Positions 53,033 through 62,673 of a DNA stretch of 64,000 bases are shown here, one piece after another. The translations under genes and the position numbers were made by a program. Numbering within the stretch: position 1 is the first letter of the stretch; every line of letters begins with the position of its first letter. The stretch comes from an uncultured Klebsiella sp. (GTDB taxonomy: Bacteria; Pseudomonadota; Gammaproteobacteria; Ga0077536), in assembly GCA_964555355.1 (NCBI GenBank), contig CAZKRY010000003.1, forward strand, positions 192,878-256,877. The letters run 5' to 3'. The notes beneath the pieces are model-generated. The model did no database searches. It saw only the letters and a list, made by a program, of their open reading frames with translations, and was not told the DNA's origin.

Positions 53033-53334
53033 GAGTGATCCTTAAATTGAGATAAATCAGTGCCGTCACAGTTTGCGACAAAGCCGGCTTGCGAAATCAC
53101 GGTCGCGAACTACACTTAAGATCATACCCAGTGCGGTGGGAATACCGCACGAAGTAGGCCGGAGCCGATGGATAAACGTGCGTACGAGCGCTTATCCGAA
53201 CTGGCAGGTGCTGATGAGCCATAGCGCCATCTGCCTAATTAGGCCGCCAGGTGACGAACATCGCCTCCGTGGTGTTGTAAGAGATGATCTCCTTTAAGCT
53301 ACCAAACCCCGCTTCGGCGGGGTTTCATTTTTGC
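53033..53334 (+). ncRNA. Candidate structured small RNA, or 27-aa peptide gene, ending in an intrinsic terminator
   Basis: 300-bp region with no convincing ORF and multiple hairpins (GTGCGGT-gggaat-ACCGCAC; GGCAG..CTGCC). Ends in AAACCCCGC-ttcg-GCGGGGTTT plus TCATTTTT on the plus strand. Confidence 0.35.
53304..53334 (+). terminator. Intrinsic terminator (9-bp GC stem plus U-tract) on the plus strand; the U-tract lies within the 3' end of the convergent SRAP gene
   Basis: aaaccccgcttcggcggggtttcatttttg. Confidence 0.7.
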
Positions 53335-54008
53335 GGAAGTGGCAATACTAATCTAGCGTCTTCATTCCGCGCATTGCCAACCGCATTACCCACCTTGTGA
53401 TAGGTCACCGGAATCGACTCCGGCTGTAGCCAGTGCTCCGCCTCTTGCACGCCAGCAGTGAGCCACGGTAACCAGTCGCGAGTGGCGAGCACGCGCGGTT
53501 GGCGATCGTGCACTTCGCGCACGATGTCGAGCGCGGCGGTAGTGATGATGGTGTAACTGAACAGCACATCGTCGGCACTGCCCCACTGTGACCAGAGTCC
53601 CGCAAACATCATTGGATTGCGGGCATCTTGAGCGTGAAAGTAATACGGCTGTTTGGTTTTCGGCGTGAATTCTTGCCACTCATACCAGCCAGTGACCGGC
53701 ACCAAACAGCGCTGTGCTGCACGCCAAGGTTGGCGGTAACTGGGTTTACCGGTGAGTTCCTCGGCGCGCGCGTTGATGGTGGAGTAACTGATTTTCAGAT
53801 CTTTTGCCCAATGCGGAATTAACCCCCAGCGCATGGGTTTGACGGCGGGTTCGCCATCCGTGAGCACGACAACCGGCATGGTCTGCGTCGGCGCGATGTT
53901 GTAGCGCGCGATCTCGGCAAGCGGGTTTTCAACGATCTCCATCCAGCCGTCTTGCCAGGCCGGATCGTCGCTGTGAAAAGGGCCGTAAAGCGCATAGCGT
54001 CCGCACAT
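53325..54008 (-). CDS. SOS response-associated peptidase (SRAP/YedK, abasic-site processing)
   Basis: MCGRY N-terminus with catalytic Cys2, ~227 aa. Confidence 0.8.
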   Translation of the reverse strand: MCGRYALYGPFHSDDPAWQDGWMEIVENPLAEIARYNIAPTQTMPVVVLTDGEPAVKPMRWGLIPHWAKDLKISYSTINARAEELTGKPSYRQPWRAAQRCLVPVTGWYEWQEFTPKTKQPYYFHAQDARNPMMFAGLWSQWGSADDVLFSYTIITTAALDIVREVHDRQPRVLATRDWLPWLTAGVQEAEHWLQPESIPVTYHKVGNAVGNARNEDARLVLPLPQK

Positions 54009-54042: not shown

Positions 54043-54969
54043 ATGCCCGAACTCATCTTGCACCACTACGACATCTCGTCTTTTTCCGAGAAGATTCGAC
54101 TCATCTTCGGTTTAAAAGGCTTGGCGTGGCGTTCCGTCATCATCCCGGCGACGCTACCTAAGCCGCACTATACGGCGCTGACGGGCGGCTATCGGCACAC
54201 GCCGAGCTTACAAATTGGCGCCGATGTTTACTGCGATACGCGGTTGATCACTGACGAGTTGGAACATCGTTATCCACACCCGACGCTGTTTCCAAATGGG
54301 CAAGTTGGTTTGTGCCGCGCGCTCGAGACATGGGCCGAAGGCGATTTCTTTTGGCACTGCGCGCGCGCCGTGGTGGGCGCGAATGCGGCCAGCTTGCCGG
54401 AAGAGTTTCATGCCGATCGCGCGGCGATGCGGGGTAAACATCCGCCGTCTCTTGTCCGCACGCAACAAGCGGGCCGGGATGCCGCGACGCAGCTGCGCGC
54501 CGTCGCCGCGGAAGTTAACAACCTCGTATCACACACATCCCCGTTTCTGCTCGGTGCGGCCCCGAGTCTTGCGGATTTAGCGCTTTATCACGGGCTATGG
54601 TTTTTGAACCAGTTTGAACATCGGTTACGCCATGAATTTTTTCCCTCCGCGACATTGCATACGTGGATGCAGCACATCGCGGCGCTTGGTCATGGCACAC
54701 GAATGGAAATGATTGACACGGAAGCACTTGCCGAAGCGCGCGCCGCCTCACCACATACAGTCGAAGAAAAAACGGACGCCCCCGCGCTGCCGGTGGGCTG
54801 CAACATCGTCGTCGAGCCGGTGGCGAAGACTTCTCCGGCGGTGTCCGGAAAATTAGTTTTCTGTGACGCGACGCGCGTGACGCTAAAACGTAGCCATGCA
54901 CTGACAGGTGAGGTGCATGTTCATTTTCCGCAGTTGGGGTATCGAATTACACGGGCAGCGACAGCGTGA
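54043..54969 (+). CDS. Glutathione S-transferase family protein with C-terminal extension
   Basis: Thioredoxin-like GST N-domain. Confidence 0.65.
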   Translation: MPELILHHYDISSFSEKIRLIFGLKGLAWRSVIIPATLPKPHYTALTGGYRHTPSLQIGADVYCDTRLITDELEHRYPHPTLFPNGQVGLCRALETWAEGDFFWHCARAVVGANAASLPEEFHADRAAMRGKHPPSLVRTQQAGRDAATQLRAVAAEVNNLVSHTSPFLLGAAPSLADLALYHGLWFLNQFEHRLRHEFFPSATLHTWMQHIAALGHGTRMEMIDTEALAEARAASPHTVEEKTDAPALPVGCNIVVEPVAKTSPAVSGKLVFCDATRVTLKRSHALTGEVHVHFPQLGYRITRAATA

Positions 54970-55747
54970 TGCTGACCGGACAATGATCGCTGCCGAGGAC
55001 ATTCGGATGGATCTCGGCGGCTTGCACCGCGCCTTTTAGCTGCGGTGAGACCAACACATAGTCGATTCTCCATCCGATATTGCGCGCACGCGCGTTGGCG
55101 AAATGGCTCCACCAGGTGTAATGGCCATTGCCTTGTTTGAATAGCCGCAAGGTATCGATAAACCCCGCGTCGACGAAATTCTGGAAACCTTCGCGTTCTT
55201 CGTCGGTAAAACCCTTCTTGCCGCGATTGGGTTTGGGATTGGCGAGATCGAGTTCCGTATGCGCCACATTGAGATCGCCGCAGAAAATGACCGGTTTGGT
55301 CTTCTCCAATTGCTTGCAGTAAGCGAGAAACGCCGGATCCCATTGTTGGTGACGTAGCGGCAGGCGGGTTAAGTCTTCTTTCGCATTTGGGGTGTACACC
55401 GTGACGACGTAGAACTGGGCGTACTCCGCGGTAATGACGCGCCCTTCGTCCGCGGCATCGCCATACTCGTCGCCTAATTGATATTTTTTCGCAAACGCTG
55501 ACGGAAAACCTTTGCTGACGGTGAGCGGTTCCTGCTTGGAAAATATCGCCGTACCTGAATAGCCCTTTTTAATCGCGGAATTCCAGTATTCGTGATAATC
55601 CGGTAAATCGACTTCGGTTTGTTCACGCTCGGCCTTGGTTTCCTGCAGGCAGAGAATGTCCGGCTGATGTTGCGTCAGAAACGGATAGAACACGCCTTTC
55701 TTCAATACCGCGCGTAGACCGTTGACGTTCCAAGAATAAATTTTCAT
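54947..55747 (-). CDS. xthA: Exodeoxyribonuclease III (AP endonuclease)
   Basis: MKIYSWNVNGLRA, LQETK, SDHCPV. Confidence 0.95.
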   Translation of the reverse strand: MKIYSWNVNGLRAVLKKGVFYPFLTQHQPDILCLQETKAEREQTEVDLPDYHEYWNSAIKKGYSGTAIFSKQEPLTVSKGFPSAFAKKYQLGDEYGDAADEGRVITAEYAQFYVVTVYTPNAKEDLTRLPLRHQQWDPAFLAYCKQLEKTKPVIFCGDLNVAHTELDLANPKPNRGKKGFTDEEREGFQNFVDAGFIDTLRLFKQGNGHYTWWSHFANARARNIGWRIDYVLVSPQLKGAVQAAEIHPNVLGSDHCPVSITLSLPV

Positions 55748-55836
55748 TCGAAAAATTTTCCGTGTGGACGAGCAAGCCGGCAGTCTAGGCGGGGACTTGT
55801 GGATCCAGCAAGCTGTGAGTCAGATCGACAAGATCC

Positions 55837-56244
55837 TTAAGCGCGGCGACGGATCGCCGTGACGAATTGCACAAAGTCGTTCACGTGATGGAGCAGGATG
55901 TCGACCAATATATTCGGATCAACTTTGGCGTAGCCGTGCACTACGAGATTACGGAAACCTGCAATCGCCTGCATACGAGCCGCAAGATCGTGATCGATCC
56001 AGCCTGCGCTCTCCAGCAACAGAAACATTTCTCGGTTCGTCTTCGGCTCGCCTAAACGCTCGTCAGAGACGATATGTGACGCGACATCGAGTGCAGCCTG
56101 CGCTGCCATCTGCAGGGTATGCGCGACGAAACGTTCTTCGCGAAGGTCGGTAGTAATCGCGACGGGGCGTGCGAGGCGTTGGAGATCGGCGAGCATTGTT
56201 TCGATGAACGCGAGTTGCTTGGCGACCAAGTCAGGATCGGTCAT
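55837..56244 (-). CDS. hepT: HepT-family (DUF86) ribonuclease toxin
   Basis: Rx4HxY motif RNLVVHGY. Confidence 0.8.
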   Translation of the reverse strand: MTDPDLVAKQLAFIETMLADLQRLARPVAITTDLREERFVAHTLQMAAQAALDVASHIVSDERLGEPKTNREMFLLLESAGWIDHDLAARMQAIAGFRNLVVHGYAKVDPNILVDILLHHVNDFVQFVTAIRRRA

Positions 56245-56642
56245 GCGTGCTCGGACCTTGCCTGCCGATAACGCTCCCGCACCGGCGCGAGATCGAAGTA
56301 CTCATTACGTGCGCGTACTTCAAAACGGATCCTGGCTGCCTTATCGCGATCGATGAGCAGTACTCCATCACGCAACACGCGATGAATAAGGTCAGCTTCG
56401 GCATGGTTCAGCACGATTAAATCGACCGGCCGGCGTACGGTCTCTTCGAGCGCGCGGGCTAAATCATCACGTAGCCCTACCAGCGTTGCCGGTGGTGCGG
56501 TATCGAGGAGTACCGCGATATCCAGATCGCTGTCTGGGCCGGCCTCCCCGCGTGCCTGGCTCCCAAAGAGATAAGCGCATACGACCTCAGCCGCCATGTT
56601 TAACGGGGCGCGAAGTTGCGTCGCGATAGTCGGGGTGTCCAT
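56241..56642 (-). CDS. mntA: MntA-family nucleotidyltransferase antitoxin
   Basis: GSQARGEAGPDSDLDIAV nucleotidyltransferase motif; 4-bp overlap with hepT. Confidence 0.8.
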   Translation of the reverse strand: MDTPTIATQLRAPLNMAAEVVCAYLFGSQARGEAGPDSDLDIAVLLDTAPPATLVGLRDDLARALEETVRRPVDLIVLNHAEADLIHRVLRDGVLLIDRDKAARIRFEVRARNEYFDLAPVRERYRQARSEHA

Positions 56643-56678
56643 TCAAAAATTATAGCGCTGCGGGTCCATATAAATTTT

Positions 56679-57127
56679 GGGACACCCACTAAATCGATAA
56701 CCCGCTAGCACCCTTCCCAAAAGGTACATATATTTGTACCTATGGAAGCACTCACTCGACGCCAACAGGCCATCCTTCACTTTGTAGTCGCCCGCATTGC
56801 CGCACATGGGCTGCCGCCGACCCTGGCCGAGATCGCGCAAGCCTTTGAATTCAATCAGGCTCGGGCCGCGCAAAAACACCTAGCCGCCCTTGCCACCAAA
56901 GGCTATTTAGAACTCCTGCCCGGGAAGGCACGGGGGATCCGGATATTGAGGACACCCATCAATTCGGGCTTCGGCGATTTTAATAACGGTAATAACGGGA
57001 CACCCACTGATTGGGATGACCCAAATTCGGGGACACCCATCGAATTGCCCATTGAATTGGGCGGGGGCTCGGCAGGGCAATTCGGGGACACCCATCGAAA
57101 TAAATTCAGGACACCCATCAAAATAAG
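56679..57127 (+). repeat. Six direct copies of a ~16-nt motif GG(G)ACACCCAYYRAWW: one in the lexA promoter (56679) and five inside the lexA ORF (56949, 56997, 57029, 57084, 57108)
   Basis: Copies read directly from the sequence. Several are preceded by AATTCGG and followed by CGAATT (hairpin potential). Confidence 0.8.
56723..56740. promoter_or_regulatory. Palindrome GGTACATATATTTGTACC (GTAC-N8-GTAC) ending 2 bp before the lexA ATG; candidate SOS operator
   Basis: Read directly from the sequence. Confidence 0.45.
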
Positions 57128-57518
57128 GGCGACGACACTCGTCCTGCCCATCCGCGGCCGCGTCGCCGCAGGTTCACCAATTGGCCCGGCTAGCGAAGAA
57201 GAGGCCCCGCACCTCGTCCTTGACCGCGCCCTCTTCTCCCGTACTCCGCATTACCTGCTACGGGTGCAGGGGGATTCGATGCAGGAGGAAGGGATCCTGG
57301 ACGGCGACCTCATCGCCGTGCACCACACCCCGGTCGCCGAGCACGGCGAGATCGTCGTCGCGCGGCTAGATAACGAGTTCACCGTCAAACGCCTGAATTG
57401 CGAACCTGGGCGTGTGTTACTCCTGCCACACAATGCCGACTATGCGCCACTTGAAGTCCTACCTACCGCGGATTTTGCAATCGAAGGCCTGTATTGCGGC
57501 TTGGTGCGACGGGCGTGA
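56742..57518 (+). CDS. lexA: LexA repressor with ~50-aa expanded inter-domain linker (258 aa)
   Basis: N-terminal wHTH (LAEIAQAF...KHLAALATKGYLE); Ala-Gly cleavage site VAAGSP; S24 Ser/Lys dyad (GDSM, VKRL). Confidence 0.9.
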   Translation: MEALTRRQQAILHFVVARIAAHGLPPTLAEIAQAFEFNQARAAQKHLAALATKGYLELLPGKARGIRILRTPINSGFGDFNNGNNGTPTDWDDPNSGTPIELPIELGGGSAGQFGDTHRNKFRTPIKIRATTLVLPIRGRVAAGSPIGPASEEEAPHLVLDRALFSRTPHYLLRVQGDSMQEEGILDGDLIAVHHTPVAEHGEIVVARLDNEFTVKRLNCEPGRVLLLPHNADYAPLEVLPTADFAIEGLYCGLVRRA

Positions 57519-58147
57519 CTACCGCTTCTGCACCACTGGATACCTTGCTCGCCAACCAACAGGTTTGGCGTGGGCGCGCGCAGGCGCGGCCGGTACATCG
57601 CCCTTATTCAACCGGCCTCACCGCTCTTGATGCCTTGCTGCCGTCACAAGGCTGGCCCGAGCACGGTCTGGTCGAAGTATTGAGCGATGCCACCGGGCAA
57701 GGCGAACTCTCGCTCCTGTTGCCCACGCTCGCCAATTTGAGCACGCAAGCCAGACCCATTCTGGCCATCGCCCCGCCCTTCTGCCCTTACGCGCCGGCCT
57801 GGCAAAAAGCCGGTGTGCGGCTCGCCCAATTGCATGTCGTGGAAGCTACCGGCACGGATGCTTTGTGGGCGATGGAGCAAGCTTTGCGCGCCGGTTGTTG
57901 CAGCGCTGTGTTGGGCTGGCCGAAGAGTGCAGACGACAAAGCACTGCGGCGTTTGCAAGTCGCCGCCGACAGCGGCAACACCCTTGGATTTATATTTCGC
58001 GCACTCGCGATGGCCCGCAATCCCTCGCCCGCGCCGCTACGGCTGTGCATCGAGTACCAAGCGACCGGCATTGCATTGCGTGTCCTCAAATGCCGTGGCA
58101 GCGCACCGCCGGCTGGGGCGGTCGCGCTCCGTTCGGCGCGCCATTGA
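57494..58147 (+). CDS. imuA: ImuA (SulA/RecA-fold, translesion synthesis cassette protein); start TTG 57494 or GTG 57515
   Basis: Position between lexA and imuB; ~210 aa; GTGA overlap with the lexA stop. Confidence 0.7.
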   Translation: MRLGATGVTTASAPLDTLLANQQVWRGRAQARPVHRPYSTGLTALDALLPSQGWPEHGLVEVLSDATGQGELSLLLPTLANLSTQARPILAIAPPFCPYAPAWQKAGVRLAQLHVVEATGTDALWAMEQALRAGCCSAVLGWPKSADDKALRRLQVAADSGNTLGFIFRALAMARNPSPAPLRLCIEYQATGIALRVLKCRGSAPPAGAVALRSARH

Positions 58148-58156
58148 TGGTATGCC

Positions 58157-59578
58157 ATGCTGTGGGCCGGGATCTATTTGCCGCACTTGGCGCTCGATGG
58201 AGTCCTCCGCCAGCATCCATCGCCTGAAGAGCCGCTGGTGCTCGTCACCGGTACTGCGCAGCGGCGCACTGTCTTGGCGGCGAATCGCGCGGCACAGGCC
58301 GTGGGTTTGCGCGCCGGGTTACCGCTGAATGCCGCGCATACTTTGGTCTCCCATTTCGGTTGCATCGAATACGACCCCCACACACTCACCCACCTACAAG
58401 CGCTGCTCGCGGCGTGGGCTTATCAATACAGTGCGCTCGTTTGTCTTGAACGCGAGCAAATCCTCCTGCTGGAAGTTCAAGCGAGTTTAGGACTATTCGG
58501 CCCCTGGCCGCGGTTCGCGCAACGTTTGCGCCAAGATTTGACCGAACTCGGCTTTCAACATCGGCTGGCGCTAGCGCCCACCCCACTTGCCGCCGGCGTG
58601 CTCGCGCAGGCGCAAGACGGTGCCGCGCTCACATCACCCGAACGCCTAACAAATGCGCTGCGCAATGTGCCGCTCGCCGCCGCACCGCTTGCCGATTCAG
58701 TCATTACGGCGCTACACGGCATGGGGATCCGTCATCTCGGCCAGTTGCTCGCACTGCCGCGCGATGGGCTACTACGTCGCTTCGGTTCGCCTGTGGTGAC
58801 TTTGCTTGATCGCCTGCAAGGCAGAGAGCCCGATCCGCGCGAGTATTACCAACCGCCCGATCTTTTCGAATCGCGGCTTGAGTTCAATTACGAACTCGCC
58901 CATACCCAGGCGTTGTTGTTTCCGCTGCGCCGGATGCTTGGCGATCTCACGCTCTATCTCCTCCAGCGCGATCGCGGCGTGCAGCGTTTCGAGCTCAAAC
59001 TATTGCACGCCGAACTTCCGCCCACCGTCATTACGCTTGGCCTGTTGAGTCCAAGCCGCGATCCGACCCATTTGTTCGATCTCTGCCGCACGCGTTTAGA
59101 ACGCGTGCGCTTACCGGCGGCGGCGCGCGGCCTACAGCTGCGCGCGCCGGAGTTACCGCCGTTTATTCCGGCGTTGCGTGATTTATTCGCAAGCCGCGCA
59201 CAAGAGAACACTTCATGGGTGGCGCTACGCGAACGCTTAAGAGCACGCTTGGGTGAAGAAGCGCTCGGCCAACTGGAACCGCAAGCCGATCCACGTCCGG
59301 AACACAGCCTGCGCCGCGTCACGCAACTTAAGACGGAGCCCGCACCGTTGGCGCTACCGCCGCGGCCATCGTGGCTATTGCCACAGCCCGTGCCGTGGCC
59401 GGGTGGAGAATTGCGGATTATCACAGGCCCCGAACGCATCGAAGCCGGTTGGTGGGATGGCGACGATGTCCGCCGCGATTATTACGTGGCGGAAACCCAT
59501 CAAGGTCAACGTGCCTGGGTGTTCCGGCCGGCCGGTGCGCACAGCGGCACCTGGATGCTGCACGGATGGTTCGCATGA
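58157..59578 (+). CDS. imuB: ImuB (Y-family polymerase-like, catalytically inactive)
   Basis: [15 protein letters not shown]-terminus typical of ImuB; ATGA overlap with dnaE2. Confidence 0.85.
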
Positions 59579-62500
59579 CCGCGTACGCCGAACTGCATTG
59601 CCTATCGCATTTCAGCTTTGGCCGCGGCGCGTCGAGCGCGCGCGAACTCTTTGCCCGCGCCAAGCGCAACGGTTATCAGGCGCTCGCGATCACGGATGAA
59701 TGTAGTTTCGCAGGGCTCGTCCGCGCGCTCGAAGCCTCGCGCGAATTCGAGCTGCCGCTTATCGTCGGTACCGAACTCACGCTGGAGGATGGCGTGAAAC
59801 TGATACTACTCGCGGAAAATGCCGCGGGTTATTCCAATTTGTGTCGACTCATTACCGCCGGCCGCCGACGCGCGGCAAAGGGTACCTATGCCGTAAGCCG
59901 CGCCGACTTGACCTGCAATCTGCTCGGCGTGTTGGCGCTGTGGTTACCGCCGTTCACCACCGCTGAGAACCTTCCTCATGCCGACGCCGTCGATGAAGGA
60001 CGATGGCTCAAAACGCTTTTCGGTTCACGCGTGTGGCTCGCGGTTGAGCTGCATCGCGGCGAGGATGACCGCGCACGACTGACCAATCTGCTGGCGCTTT
60101 CCGAGCAACTCGACATGCGCGCGGTCGCGAGCGGTGACGTGCACATGCATGTGCGTAAACGCCGCGCCGTGCAGGATGTGCTCACCGCAATCCGTCACCA
60201 CACCACGGTGGCCGCCGCCGGACGTTATCTCTTTCCAAACGGCGAACGACATCTACGCACTCGCACTGCCTTAGACGCAATCTATCCGCCCGCCCTGTTG
60301 CAAGAGTCAGTCGCCATCGCGCGCCGTTGCACTTTTGATCTCGGCAAGTTGAGTTATCAATACCCCCATGAACTCGTACCGGAAGGACATAACGCGACGA
60401 GTTGGCTGCGTGAATTAACCACACAGGGCGCGGCCTGGCGCTGGCCGCAGGGCGTGCCGGATAAAGTGCGTGCACTCATCGATTACGAACTCGCGCTGAT
60501 CGCGGAACTCCGCTACGAGCCTTTTTTCTTAACCGTGCACGATGTCGTGCGTTATGCGCGCAGCCGCGGCATTTTGTGCCAAGGCCGTGGCTCGGCGGCG
60601 AACTCCGCGGTGTGTTTCGCGCTAGGCGTCACGGAGGTTGATCCCGCGCGCTACACCTTGTTGTTCGAACGTTTTATCTCCAAAGAACGCAACGAGCCGC
60701 CGGATATCGATGTCGATTTCGAGCACGAGCGGCGTGAAGAAATCATTCAATACCTCTATACCAAATACGGTCGCGAGCGGGCGGCACTCGCCGCCACCGT
60801 CATTTGTTATCGCCCCAAAAGCGCGATCCGCGATGTAGGCAAAGCACTGGGCCTGCCGGAAGATCAACTCGAGCAATTAAGCCGCGCGGTGTCCTGGTGG
60901 GATGGTGAGAGCCCGCTCGATGATCGGTTGCAAGAGCGCGGTTTCGATCCGGCGAGTGCGCTCTTGAAGCGGGTGGTCGCGGTCACCCGTGAGTTACTCG
61001 ATGCACCGCGCCATTTATCGCAACATGTGGGCGGTTTTGTGATCTCCGAGCAACCCTTGCATCACTTGGTGCCGGTGGAAAACGCCGCCATGCCGGAGCG
61101 CACGATCATCCAATGGGACAAGGACGATCTAGAAACCTTAGGCCTGCTCAAGGTGGATTGTTTAGCGCTTGGCATGCTGACCTGCGTGAGTAAATGTCTC
61201 GCCCTCTTGCGCACGGTGCGCGGGCGTGAGTTAACGCCGGCGACGATCCCGGCCGAAGATCTCGCCACTTATCGCATGATTCAAAAGGCGGACACGGTAG
61301 GGGTATTCCAAATCGAATCGCGCGCGCAGATGGCGATGCTACCGCGTTTGAAACCGGCGACGTTCTACGATCTGGTGATCGAAGTCGCGATCGTGCGGCC
61401 CGGCCCTATTCAAGGGAAAATGGTGCATCCGTATTTGCGCCGGCGGCAAGGCTTGGAGCCGGTCGAATATCCATCGCCGGAATTGCGGCCGGTGTTTGCA
61501 CGCACACTCGGCGTGCCGTTGTTTCAAGAACAGGTCATGCAACTTGCGATCGTCGCCGCCGGCTTCACGCCGGGCGAAGCCGATCGCCTGCGACGTTCGA
61601 TGGCCGCCTGGAAGCGGCGCGGCGGGCTTGAGTATTTTCGCGATCGGATCGTCGAAGGCATGCAGGCGCGCGGCTATAGCATCGAATTCGCTTTGCAGAT
61701 TTTTGAGCAGATCAAAGGCTTCGGCAGCTATGGCTTTCCGGAATCGCATGCCGCGAGTTTTGCCCTCATCACCTATGTCAGTTGCTGGTTGAAATGCCAT
61801 GAACCGGCGGCATTCACCTGCGCCTTGCTGAACTCACAACCGCTGGGTTTTTATACCGCCAATCAATTAGTCCAAGACGCGCGCCGGCATGGCATCGAGG
61901 TGCGGCCGGTGGACGTGCGCTTTAGTGAGTGGGACTCGATGTTAGAGCCTCATGCGGAAACCGCCCAACCCGCATTGCGACTAGGTTTACGCGAAATCAA
62001 CGGCTTTAAAGTAGCCGATGCCGCGCGGCTCGTCACTGCCCGCGCGGTGCGTGCTTTTGCGGATGTGCACGATCTCTGTAGGCGTGCCGCGCTCGATGCC
62101 CGAGCACGCGGCTTGCTCGCCGGGGCCGGTGCCTTGCGCGGCTTGGCCGGCCACCGCCATCGCGCACGCTGGGCGGTGGAAGGCGTGGAAGCAAGCCGTC
62201 CCCTGCTCGACGCGCAAGCCATACCGGAATCCGCGGTATCGCTCCCCGTACCGACCGCCGGCGAAACCGTCATCGCGGATTACACGAGCACCGGGTTGTC
62301 GCTGGGCCCGCATCCGTTGCGCCTCTTGCGCGCACAATTAAAAGCACGCCGTTGCTTACGCTCGCGCGAATTCACGCAACTGAGCCACGGCACCCCCGTG
62401 CGCCTGGCCGGCCTCGTCACGCTGCGCCAACGTCCTTCAACCGCCAGCGGCACGGTCTTTGTCACGCTGGAAGACGAAGACGGCATGGTGAACGTGGTGG

Positions 62501-62673
62501 TGTGGCCCAAACTGGGGATGCGTCAACGCCGCACCTTGCTTGAATCGCGTTTGATGATGGTGGAAGGGCATCTCGAAGCGGCCGACGGTGTGCAGCACTT
62601 AATCGCGAAGAAGCTCAATGATTGGAGCGCGCTCTTAGGCAGGTTGGATATTCGCTCGCGGGATTTTAGGTAG
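59575..62673 (+). CDS. dnaE2: Error-prone DNA polymerase III alpha homologue DnaE2 (ImuC)
   Basis: PHP domain ([12 protein letters not shown]) plus the DnaE core; 1032 aa. Confidence 0.9.

Follow-up and report, generated by a model that had tools for sequence, protein, structure and literature searches.

How an array of short repeats came to lie inside the gene for the master repressor of the SOS response, and how the protein accommodates it, is the question raised by the lexA gene in a 64,000-nucleotide stretch of DNA (the window) from an uncultured Klebsiella sp. (contig CAZKRY010000003.1). Within this gene, direct copies of a 13-nt motif, GGACACCCAYYRA, occupy the hinge that joins the two domains of LexA. 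The explanation favored here, with a probability of roughly 0.78, is that the array belongs to a widespread repeat family associated with Y1 transposases and represents an ancestral in-frame insertion that is translated into a disordered and tolerated extension of the hinge. Sequence, flanks and array geometry all place the array in this family, Y1 genes accompany the family in other genomes, and the five intragenic copies are orthologous in two lineages.

Repeat copies in the window

An initial annotation of this DNA, made from its letters alone, had reported five repeat copies in lexA and a sixth upstream. Exact matching bears out this count: GGACACCCAYYRA occurs six times on the + strand (starts 56680, 56950, 56998, 57031, 57086 and 57109; overall span 56680-57121), five times within lexA and once 62 nt upstream of its ATG. 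Dinucleotide-preserving shuffles of the window lead to an expectation of 0.27 occurrences, and 7 matches were reached in 0 of 100 shuffles. The 8-mer core GGACACCC adds one inverted copy, and repeat alignment groups the six copies as a single 21-nt family. The copies and two short duplications in the spacers are as follows, with L001 denoting a metagenome contig that carries a related lexA.

56633..56640, - strand: inverted 8-mer core GGACACCC, at the annotated mntA start (ATGGACACCCC)
56680..56692, + strand: upstream repeat copy, just beyond the block conserved with L001
56950..56962, + strand: repeat copy 1, GGACACCCATCAA, read R-T-P-I-N; identical in L001 at 436-448
56981..56998, + strand: 9-bp tandem duplication, TAATAACGG x2, in a spacer, encoding NNGNNG
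56998..57010, + strand: repeat copy 2, GGACACCCACTGA, read G-T-P-T-D; the L001 orthologue at 460-472 is GGACAGCCATCAA
57031..57043, + strand: repeat copy 3, GGACACCCATCGA, read G-T-P-I-E; its 21-nt unit is the same as that of copy 4
57036..57059, + strand: 12-bp tandem duplication, CCCATCGAATTG x2, in a spacer, encoding PIELPIEL
57086..57098, + strand: repeat copy 4, GGACACCCATCGA, in the other frame, G-D-T-H-R; L001 keeps the frame, G-D-T-H-Q
57109..57121, + strand: repeat copy 5, GGACACCCATCAA, read R-T-P-I-K

The reading of the repeats in two frames, also claimed at the outset, holds as well. Four of the intragenic copies encode (R/G)-T-P-(I/T) and the copy at 57086 encodes G-D-T-H-R; the 21-nt units at 57024-57044 and 57079-57099 are 100% identical, yet their reading frames differ. 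The 13-mer never introduces a stop codon in two of its forward frames, nor, in the common AYC-RA variant, in the third. All five intragenic copies lie on the + strand at irregular spacings of 48, 33, 55 and 23 nt, and Tandem Repeats Finder detects no tandem array of the motif, only the 9-bp and 12-bp spacer duplications. When up to three mismatches are allowed, the whole 64-kb window holds 28 matches, the six real copies included, against 22 expected, and the rest are at chance level. The suggestion that the motif might be dispersed through the source genome therefore finds no copies beyond the lexA locus within the window.

A LexA with an enlarged hinge

The gene and the parts of its product that bear on function are located as follows.

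56742..57518, + strand: lexA coding sequence, 258 aa plus stop
56952..57143, + strand: expanded hinge, aa 71-134, counterpart of E. coli LexA residues 71-75
57168..57173, + strand: Ala143-Gly144 autocleavage site, with the Ser179 codon at 57276-57278 and the Lys216 codon at 57387-57389

The product matches the TIGR00498 lexA model at 171 bits (cutoff 111), with the Pfam domains LexA_DNA_bind (PF01726) at aa 1-65 and Peptidase_S24 (PF00717) at aa 137-250. Comparison with LexA structures in the PDB by phmmer pairs residues 1-70 with E. coli residues 1-70 and residues 135-257 with E. coli residues 76-198, leaving a hinge of 64 residues against 5 in the E. coli protein, a lengthening of about 59. 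The unusual length first reported for this LexA is thus borne out: among the 120 best homologues in a collection of 5.8 billion clustered proteins, nearly all have 201-225 aa, the exceptions being P0001 (258 aa), which is identical to the window protein, and P0002 (249 aa). AlphaFold2 assigns residues 74-127 a pLDDT below 50 and no secondary structure while folding both domains, and the hinge is accordingly predicted to be disordered. Its DNA is also different in composition, with a GC content of 0.51-0.58 compared with 0.62-0.69 in the flanking lexA sequence.

A143-G144, S179 (in the sequence GDSM) and K216, which we take from established knowledge of E. coli LexA to be the cleavage site and the Ser/Lys dyad, are invariant columns in an alignment of this LexA with 12 homologues (13 sequences). 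In agreement with the initial annotation, both domains and the catalytic residues are, as judged from family models and alignment, intact, and the protein would be a working repressor with a long tether.

Conservation of the array in a second lineage

P0002, at 75% aa identity, is the only other long-hinge LexA among the 120 best homologues and is encoded on L001, a contig of 992 bp. Each of the five motif copies in its lexA is orthologous in position to a window copy and keeps that copy's frame, the one read as GDTH among them. The possibility that the linker insertion is strain-specific does not survive this comparison, as the only close relative has the whole array. The nearest short-hinge homologues share the lexA-imuA-imuB-dnaE2 cassette, and their hinge DNA is without the motif. 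Because the same five copies are orthologous and the short-hinge relatives lack them, the array appears to have been acquired once, before the split between the window and L001 lineages. Further array-bearing genes were sought in metagenomes; a scan for the GKARGIR codons plus the motif gave 0 matches, and a scan with the LexA protein gave a distant relative of 33% identity as its sole match.

The pattern of divergence between the two genes is uneven. The 9-nt cores are identical at 44 of 45 nt and the 13-mers at 58 of 65, whereas the aligned spacer columns (obtained by subtraction from linker totals) are about 51% identical and have many in-frame indels. At third-codon positions, 15 of 15 are identical in the cores, compared with 97 of 170 synonymous positions (57%) in the domains (binomial P = 2e-4). 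The codons of the cores, ACA and CCC, are not the usual choice for Thr and Pro elsewhere in the window lexA. Since the cores remain identical at synonymous sites while the spacers diverge, constraint or homogenisation would act on the nucleotides and not on the peptide; we infer that the cores are either under constraint at the nucleic acid level, for example through recognition by a trans-acting protein, or homogenised.

A repeat family in many genomes

A scan for two nearby copies of the 13-mer, with one genome taken per species, returned at least 119 loci; about 17 chance matches are to be expected, a rough estimate that was not computed. The listed loci contain 816 core copies in 841 kb, where about 6 would be expected, and 78 of them have at least four copies. 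The family core is GGACACCCA, with an extended form that is roughly AATYCG-GGACACCCA-YCRAWT. Most loci are from Gammaproteobacteria (Woeseiaceae, Pseudohongiella, Microbulbifer, Alcanivorax, Halieaceae, Lysobacteraceae, Tahibacter and Steroidobacteraceae); others come from Acidobacteriota (Acanthopleuribacter, Sulfidibacter, Holophagae), Planctomycetota and Verrucomicrobiota, and isolate genomes are included. The 9-mer, sought in full-text literature, was found only in unrelated virology primers.

Across these loci, 553 adjacent pairs have the same orientation, with a median spacing of 34 nt (interquartile range 27-47), and a single orientation prevails throughout 83 of 112 clusters of at least three copies. 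The geometry of the lexA array, five + copies 23-55 nt apart, agrees with this arrangement. The positions that flank the searched 13-mer were also scored with a matrix derived from the other genomes alone; the six window copies all reach 4.4-6.1 bits, against a mean of -1.8 and a 99th percentile of 3.9 for random window positions. As these flanks lie outside the 13-mer used in the scan, their match is independent evidence of family membership.

Other members of the family also reside in coding sequence. An M81/MlrC peptidase gene (L006:1350-3269, + strand) has an in-frame array of eight copies, in two frames, at residues 345-434, exactly between the DUF1485 and MlrC_C domains. On either side of this array stands one copy of a host segment of about 25 aa that has been duplicated (ALWDTHESTRLAFPGPEEAMAAARAG and LQDTHESTHLTPRGTDEAMTAARAG), a possible trace of how the array arose. 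In an amidohydrolase gene of another genome, in-frame motif copies lie inside a domain, and in L119:5603-7999 (- strand) two copies, read ESGTPIESGESGTPID, are found at or just upstream of the N-terminus of recJ, a repair gene acting on single-stranded DNA.

Non-coding arrays vary more in size and composition. A mosaic of about 1 kb (L015:6700-7600, - strand) interleaves 28 GGACACCCA cores with the units GGGAAACC and GGCAATCC and is open in all six frames, giving rise to several spurious open reading frames (ORFs) of 100-350 aa. Between two close relatives whose flanks are 85-94% identical (L044:2200-2560 and L050:3500-3870), an intergenic array of tandem-like units of 27-31 nt differs in copy number, with 5 copies (one degenerate) in the first and 2 in the second. 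Family arrays can thus change size, which makes the stability of the lexA array more notable. When the window lexA, imuA, imuB, dnaE2, xth, yedK, mntA and hepT were compared by tblastn with the 119 listed loci, L001 alone was matched; the arrays at the other listed loci therefore do not adjoin this cassette.

Association with a Y1 transposase-like gene

A HUH/Y1 transposase-like protein of about 325 aa is encoded next to the arrays at 24 of the 119 listed loci. It gives a weak match to Pfam Y1_Tnp and a sub-threshold match to the NCBIfam model for "REP-associated tyrosine transposase," and its motifs are NHYH, GRFWE and YVDLNP. A signature of NHYH / WE / YVDLNP with a median length of 325 aa has been described for TnpA_Y1 subclass 2.3 (Quentin et al. 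2018, PMC6006769), and because motifs and length agree, the protein is assigned this signature. In most of 18 full-length cases, the ATG of the Y1 gene is preceded at about 80-135 nt by + copies and the gene is followed by - copies, with three genes lacking an upstream copy and two lacking a downstream copy. The inverted flanking persists down to 38% protein identity and across phyla. The copies around the Y1 genes thus form a terminal-inverted-repeat arrangement. Together with the two reading frames and the occurrence of the same 13-mer in non-coding arrays of more than 100 other genomes, this supports the earlier proposal that the repeat is an element of the DNA rather than of the protein.

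The arrangement recalls the TIRtrons, whose proteins are termed TIRYTs and whose terminal repeats, with GGGGWSAS in common, make up families of moderate abundance in which copies stand alone, in pairs or in clusters (Di Nocera et al. 2013, PMC3733652). The likeness extends to repeats that flank a Y1/HUH gene in inverted orientation, to a match with GGGGWSAS, and to a protein of about 325 aa with NHYH / WE / YVDLNP. As GGGGACAC, the repeat fits GGGGWSAS fully in 2 of the 6 window copies, and the other four each agree with it at 7 of the 8 positions. In contrast, the examples of TIRYTs fall in TnpA_Y1 subclasses 2.1, 2.2 and 2.5 and not in 2.3 (PMC6006769). The link between GGACACCCA and subclass 2.3 may not have been described previously; a search for literature on TIRYT or subclass 2.3 found nothing newer than PMC3733652 and PMC6006769.

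Some details of individual loci complement this picture. In Microbulbifer thermotolerans (L078:1-8000), three TIRtron-like units of about 1.3 kb and a truncated fourth stand in tandem, with Y1 genes that are 89-100% identical (one of them at L078:1592-2581) and with unrelated small ORFs interleaved between units, an organization that fits the multi-copy behavior reported for subclass 2.3 (PMC6006769). The Microbulbifer Y1 genes (L078:2560-2585 and its paralogues in L078) begin ATGGGACACCCGCGC, so that a motif-like core overlaps the start codon, and the window mntA begins similarly, with ATGGACACCCC.

Folding potential of the repeats

The brackets of AATTCG...CGAATT from which hairpins had been proposed are present around the copy at 57031 and partially at 57086, and an ATTGA/TCAAT bracket occurs at 56950. 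The predicted hairpins themselves are weak. Single copies folded as DNA give -1.8 to -5.7 kcal/mol, with z-scores of -1.0 to -1.8 relative to shuffles, and the whole hinge folded as RNA does no better than shuffles (z = -0.74). Flanking stems of at least 4 bp are found in 11% of 823 family copies, compared with 6.8% after shuffling, and are thus a minority feature. A hairpin as the defining property of the repeat was rejected in view of these weak z-scores and the minority of family copies with stems. Searches of Rfam 15 at E <= 10 gave no meaningful match in the lexA region or the L015 array, and across the whole window a single tRNA was the only match.

Comparison with known repeats and hinge insertions

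Intragenic copies of the repetitive extragenic palindromes (REPs) tagged GTAG or CGTC can lie wholly within ORFs, in frame, often as dimers or clusters that encode 20-82 residues (PMC3733652). They are frequent in uvrABCD, recBCD, polA and dnaE2, and this bias toward replication and repair has been deemed unlikely to be fortuitous; the GTAG-tagged REPs are linked to REP-associated tyrosine transposases (RAYTs), whereas the CGTC-tagged REPs are without a known dedicated transposase (PMC3733652). Insertions of this kind in flexible linkers may be tolerated and are possibly neutral (PMC3733652). The lexA repeat is similarly short, in frame and located in a repair gene, but it has neither the GTAG or CGTC tag nor a convincing palindrome and belongs instead to a family of the TIRYT/subclass-2.3 type. 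Nor does the published description of intragenic REPs cover cores that stay conserved between species at synonymous sites (PMC3733652). The characterization of the lexA array as unusual, made at the outset, can therefore stand only in part: lexA goes unmentioned in the main text of PMC3733652, to which this check is confined (the table of tagged genes is in Additional file 3), but in-frame REPs and related repeats in repair genes, dnaE2 included, are documented. Intragenic repeats resembling REPs or Rickettsia palindromic elements (RPEs) are thus already known in repair genes, and the lexA array adds a case; less routine are the conservation of its cores at the nucleotide level and the link of GGACACCCA to TnpA_Y1 subclass 2.3.

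RPEs are palindromic units of about 100-150 bp that are specific to Rickettsia, with one element per insertion, and no dedicated transposase is known for them. The lexA units, by contrast, measure about 13-21 nt and form an array of 13-nt cores, so that the likeness is functional only, in being in frame and tolerated. Genes with an in-frame RPE probably retain functional products (summarised in PMC3733652). The REPINs of REPIN-RAYT systems are described as short repeats that are not autonomous but associated with a domesticated Y1 transposase, and as vertically inherited and persistent at orthologous sites. They are inverted REP doublets with long hairpins in extragenic positions, whereas the lexA copies form a direct, intragenic array with weak hairpins or none. 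Classical REPs and REPINs are marked by a 5' GT[AG]G tetranucleotide at the base of a stable hairpin and by inverted doublets; the lexA copies lack the GTAG tag, the stable hairpin and the inverted doublets.

A natural precedent for a lengthened hinge is the LexA of Mycobacterium tuberculosis, which, according to the abstract of its description, is functional and carries in its hinge an insertion of 18 aa with an effect on DNA binding (PMC8607333). That insertion has 18 residues and the abstract gives no repeat-DNA origin for it, whereas the insertion in the window LexA has about 59 residues and is encoded by repeats.

Upstream region and gene neighborhood

As the initial annotation had proposed and family models confirm, lexA heads a lexA-imuA-imuB-dnaE2 cassette; hepT-mntA and xth lie upstream of it.

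55837..56642, - strand: hepT-mntA type VII toxin-antitoxin pair (NF047751, NF047752), divergent from lexA
56722..56741, + strand: LexA-box-like palindrome GGTACATATATTTGTACC, an inverted repeat abutting the lexA ATG
57494..58147, + strand: imuA (NF033429 ImuA_translesion, 216 bits)
58157..59578, + strand: imuB (Y-family polymerase-like), from a weak DNA polymerase IV subfamily match and its position in the cassette
59371..62673, + strand: dnaE2 (error-prone polymerase; NF004225, 1492 bits, aligned from residue 69)

In the cassettes of relatives, the product at the imuB position likewise gives a weak IMS match. The longest dnaE2 ORF begins with a GTG at 59371 and shares about 200 nt with imuB; since the NF004225 alignment begins at residue 69, translation probably starts near 59570 instead.

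No exact GTAC-N8-GTAC occurs in the window apart from the palindrome at 56722-56741, which L001 shares without change (209-226) and the short-hinge L122 and L123 nearly so, as GGTGAATATATTTATACC and GGTGAATATATTTACACC; on this sequence evidence it is probably the LexA operator of the cassette. There is no Shine-Dalgarno sequence between the palindrome and the lexA start codon, and the lexA mRNA may be leaderless. A promoter consensus scan of 56550-57200 found no sigma-70-like site.

Alignments of the window with L001 by BLAST and MAFFT begin at about 56703, and no upstream motif copy is found in L001. Alignment of MntA to its family model starts only at residue 18; should translation of mntA begin at the second Met, the inverted 8-mer at 56633-56640 might be intergenic. 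A sequence that precedes the short-hinge lexA of L122, GGGGGCAGCCACCAAT (960-1000), pairs with the upstream window copy TGGGACACCCACTAAAT at about 11 of 13 motif positions and could be a degenerate ancient copy or a chance match. In the contigs of P0014, a short-hinge relative, the order is Iso_dh - SRAP - lexA - imuA - imuB - dnaE2, with SRAP adjoining lexA; the window has about 2.6 kb of DNA (54043-56642), comprising a GST-like ORF, xth, hepT and mntA, between the SRAP gene (53325-54008) and lexA. The inverted motif pair at 56633-56692 is situated at the right-hand junction of this block.

Origin of the array and competing explanations

In the mechanism proposed here, the array would have become established in the lexA hinge in the common ancestor of the window and L001 organisms, seeded or mobilised by a Y1 enzyme, and may have grown by repeated insertion or local duplication. 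Because its orientation leaves the unit without a stop codon, it could be translated, in two frames, as a disordered hinge extension of about 59 residues. This extension would fall between the winged-helix domain and the domain with the cleavage site and S24 peptidase, leaving both untouched and acting as a tolerated tether. To judge from sequence, a tolerated extension of the tether is most likely what the array represents. Several considerations weigh against this account. Array-bearing lexA sequences number two, so the conservation test is a single pairwise comparison, in which the cores could look more conserved than they are if gene conversion has acted among the copies. The link to Y1 genes comes from the present analysis of loci that were chosen by the motif itself, a source of bias, and no REP-like sequence was found for subclass 2.3 genes in the published survey (PMC6006769). 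The 64-kb window, a small part of the genome, contains no Y1 homologue and no motif copy beyond the lexA locus, and any cognate enzyme or dispersed family in the source genome is hypothetical.

Among the alternatives, that of a neutral passenger, a decaying relic whose cores are conserved through gene conversion or through a peptide preference for TP(I/T) and DTH, is a real if doubtful possibility. A relic is in keeping with a window that has neither further copies nor a Y1 gene, with spacers that evolve freely through in-frame indels, and with the possible neutrality of insertions in flexible linkers (PMC3733652); the identity of copies 3 and 4 over 21 nt is likewise compatible with intragenic homogenisation or duplication. 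Homogenisation within each lineage alone, however, would not hold both lineages on a consensus that extends across phyla, nor do 15 of 15 identical synonymous sites against a background of 57%, in codons (ACA and CCC) that are not common for Thr and Pro elsewhere in lexA, suit a passenger. Moreover, one copy is conserved in the other frame, so a single peptide preference cannot cover all five. The same facts bear more heavily on the idea of a protein-level tandem repeat, in which a T-P-I peptide would be selected for hinge function. Four copies do encode (R/G)TP(I/T), but the identical DNA unit is read GDTH in the remaining copy, non-coding arrays open in every frame are rich in the motif, and the synonymous sites are frozen; contradicted already by frame and by synonymous sites, this idea is close to untenable. 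Scarcely better placed is the slippage-prone or phase-variable repeat suggested by the initial annotation, in which frequent changes in copy number would switch the length or frame of the hinge. The 9-bp and 12-bp tandem duplications in two spacers and the 5 versus 2 copies of a same-family intergenic array in close relatives lend it some color, but the motif copies are themselves non-tandem and irregularly spaced, Tandem Repeats Finder detects no array of them, and five copies, all in frame, are present in both lineages at 75% protein identity. A phase-variable simple sequence repeat was rejected for these reasons, and the suggestion is very improbable.

Conservation at the nucleotide level can also be read as a sign of function. 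The copies could constitute a cis-regulatory array of the host, that is, DNA or mRNA sites for a host factor (for example of the CsrA type, which would involve GGA loops) that tunes lexA and its cassette independently of any transposase, and the copy in the lexA upstream region as well as the few copies in small stem-loops with GGA in the loop would suit such a role. As the upstream copy is not conserved in L001, hairpins are no better than shuffles, only 11% of family copies have stems of at least 4 bp (6.8% in shuffled sequence), no Rfam family matches, and the inverted layout around Y1 genes indicates a terminal repeat at the DNA level, this role is decidedly unlikely. A further proposal, somewhat less remote but still unlikely, holds that GGACACCCA arrays are the unrecognised cognate repeats of subclass 2.3 and that the lexA array, instead of being carried passively, is maintained by purifying selection on its nucleotides because a Y1/HUH enzyme acting on single-stranded DNA, or another factor, binds or processes it there. 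If true, it would physically couple the processing of single-stranded DNA to the gene for the SOS master repressor and to the imuA-imuB-dnaE2 cassette.

Implications for LexA and the repeat family

With an array of in-frame, transposase-associated repeats in lexA, the master regulator of the SOS response joins the repair genes in which such repeats occur. The 59-residue hinge derived from them amounts to a natural experiment on the separability of the LexA domains, in a protein whose hinge length and flexibility affect operator binding. The frozen synonymous sites suggest that intragenic repeats may be under selection as DNA, and the family offers a candidate cognate repeat for a subclass of Y1 transposases that has been described as having none.

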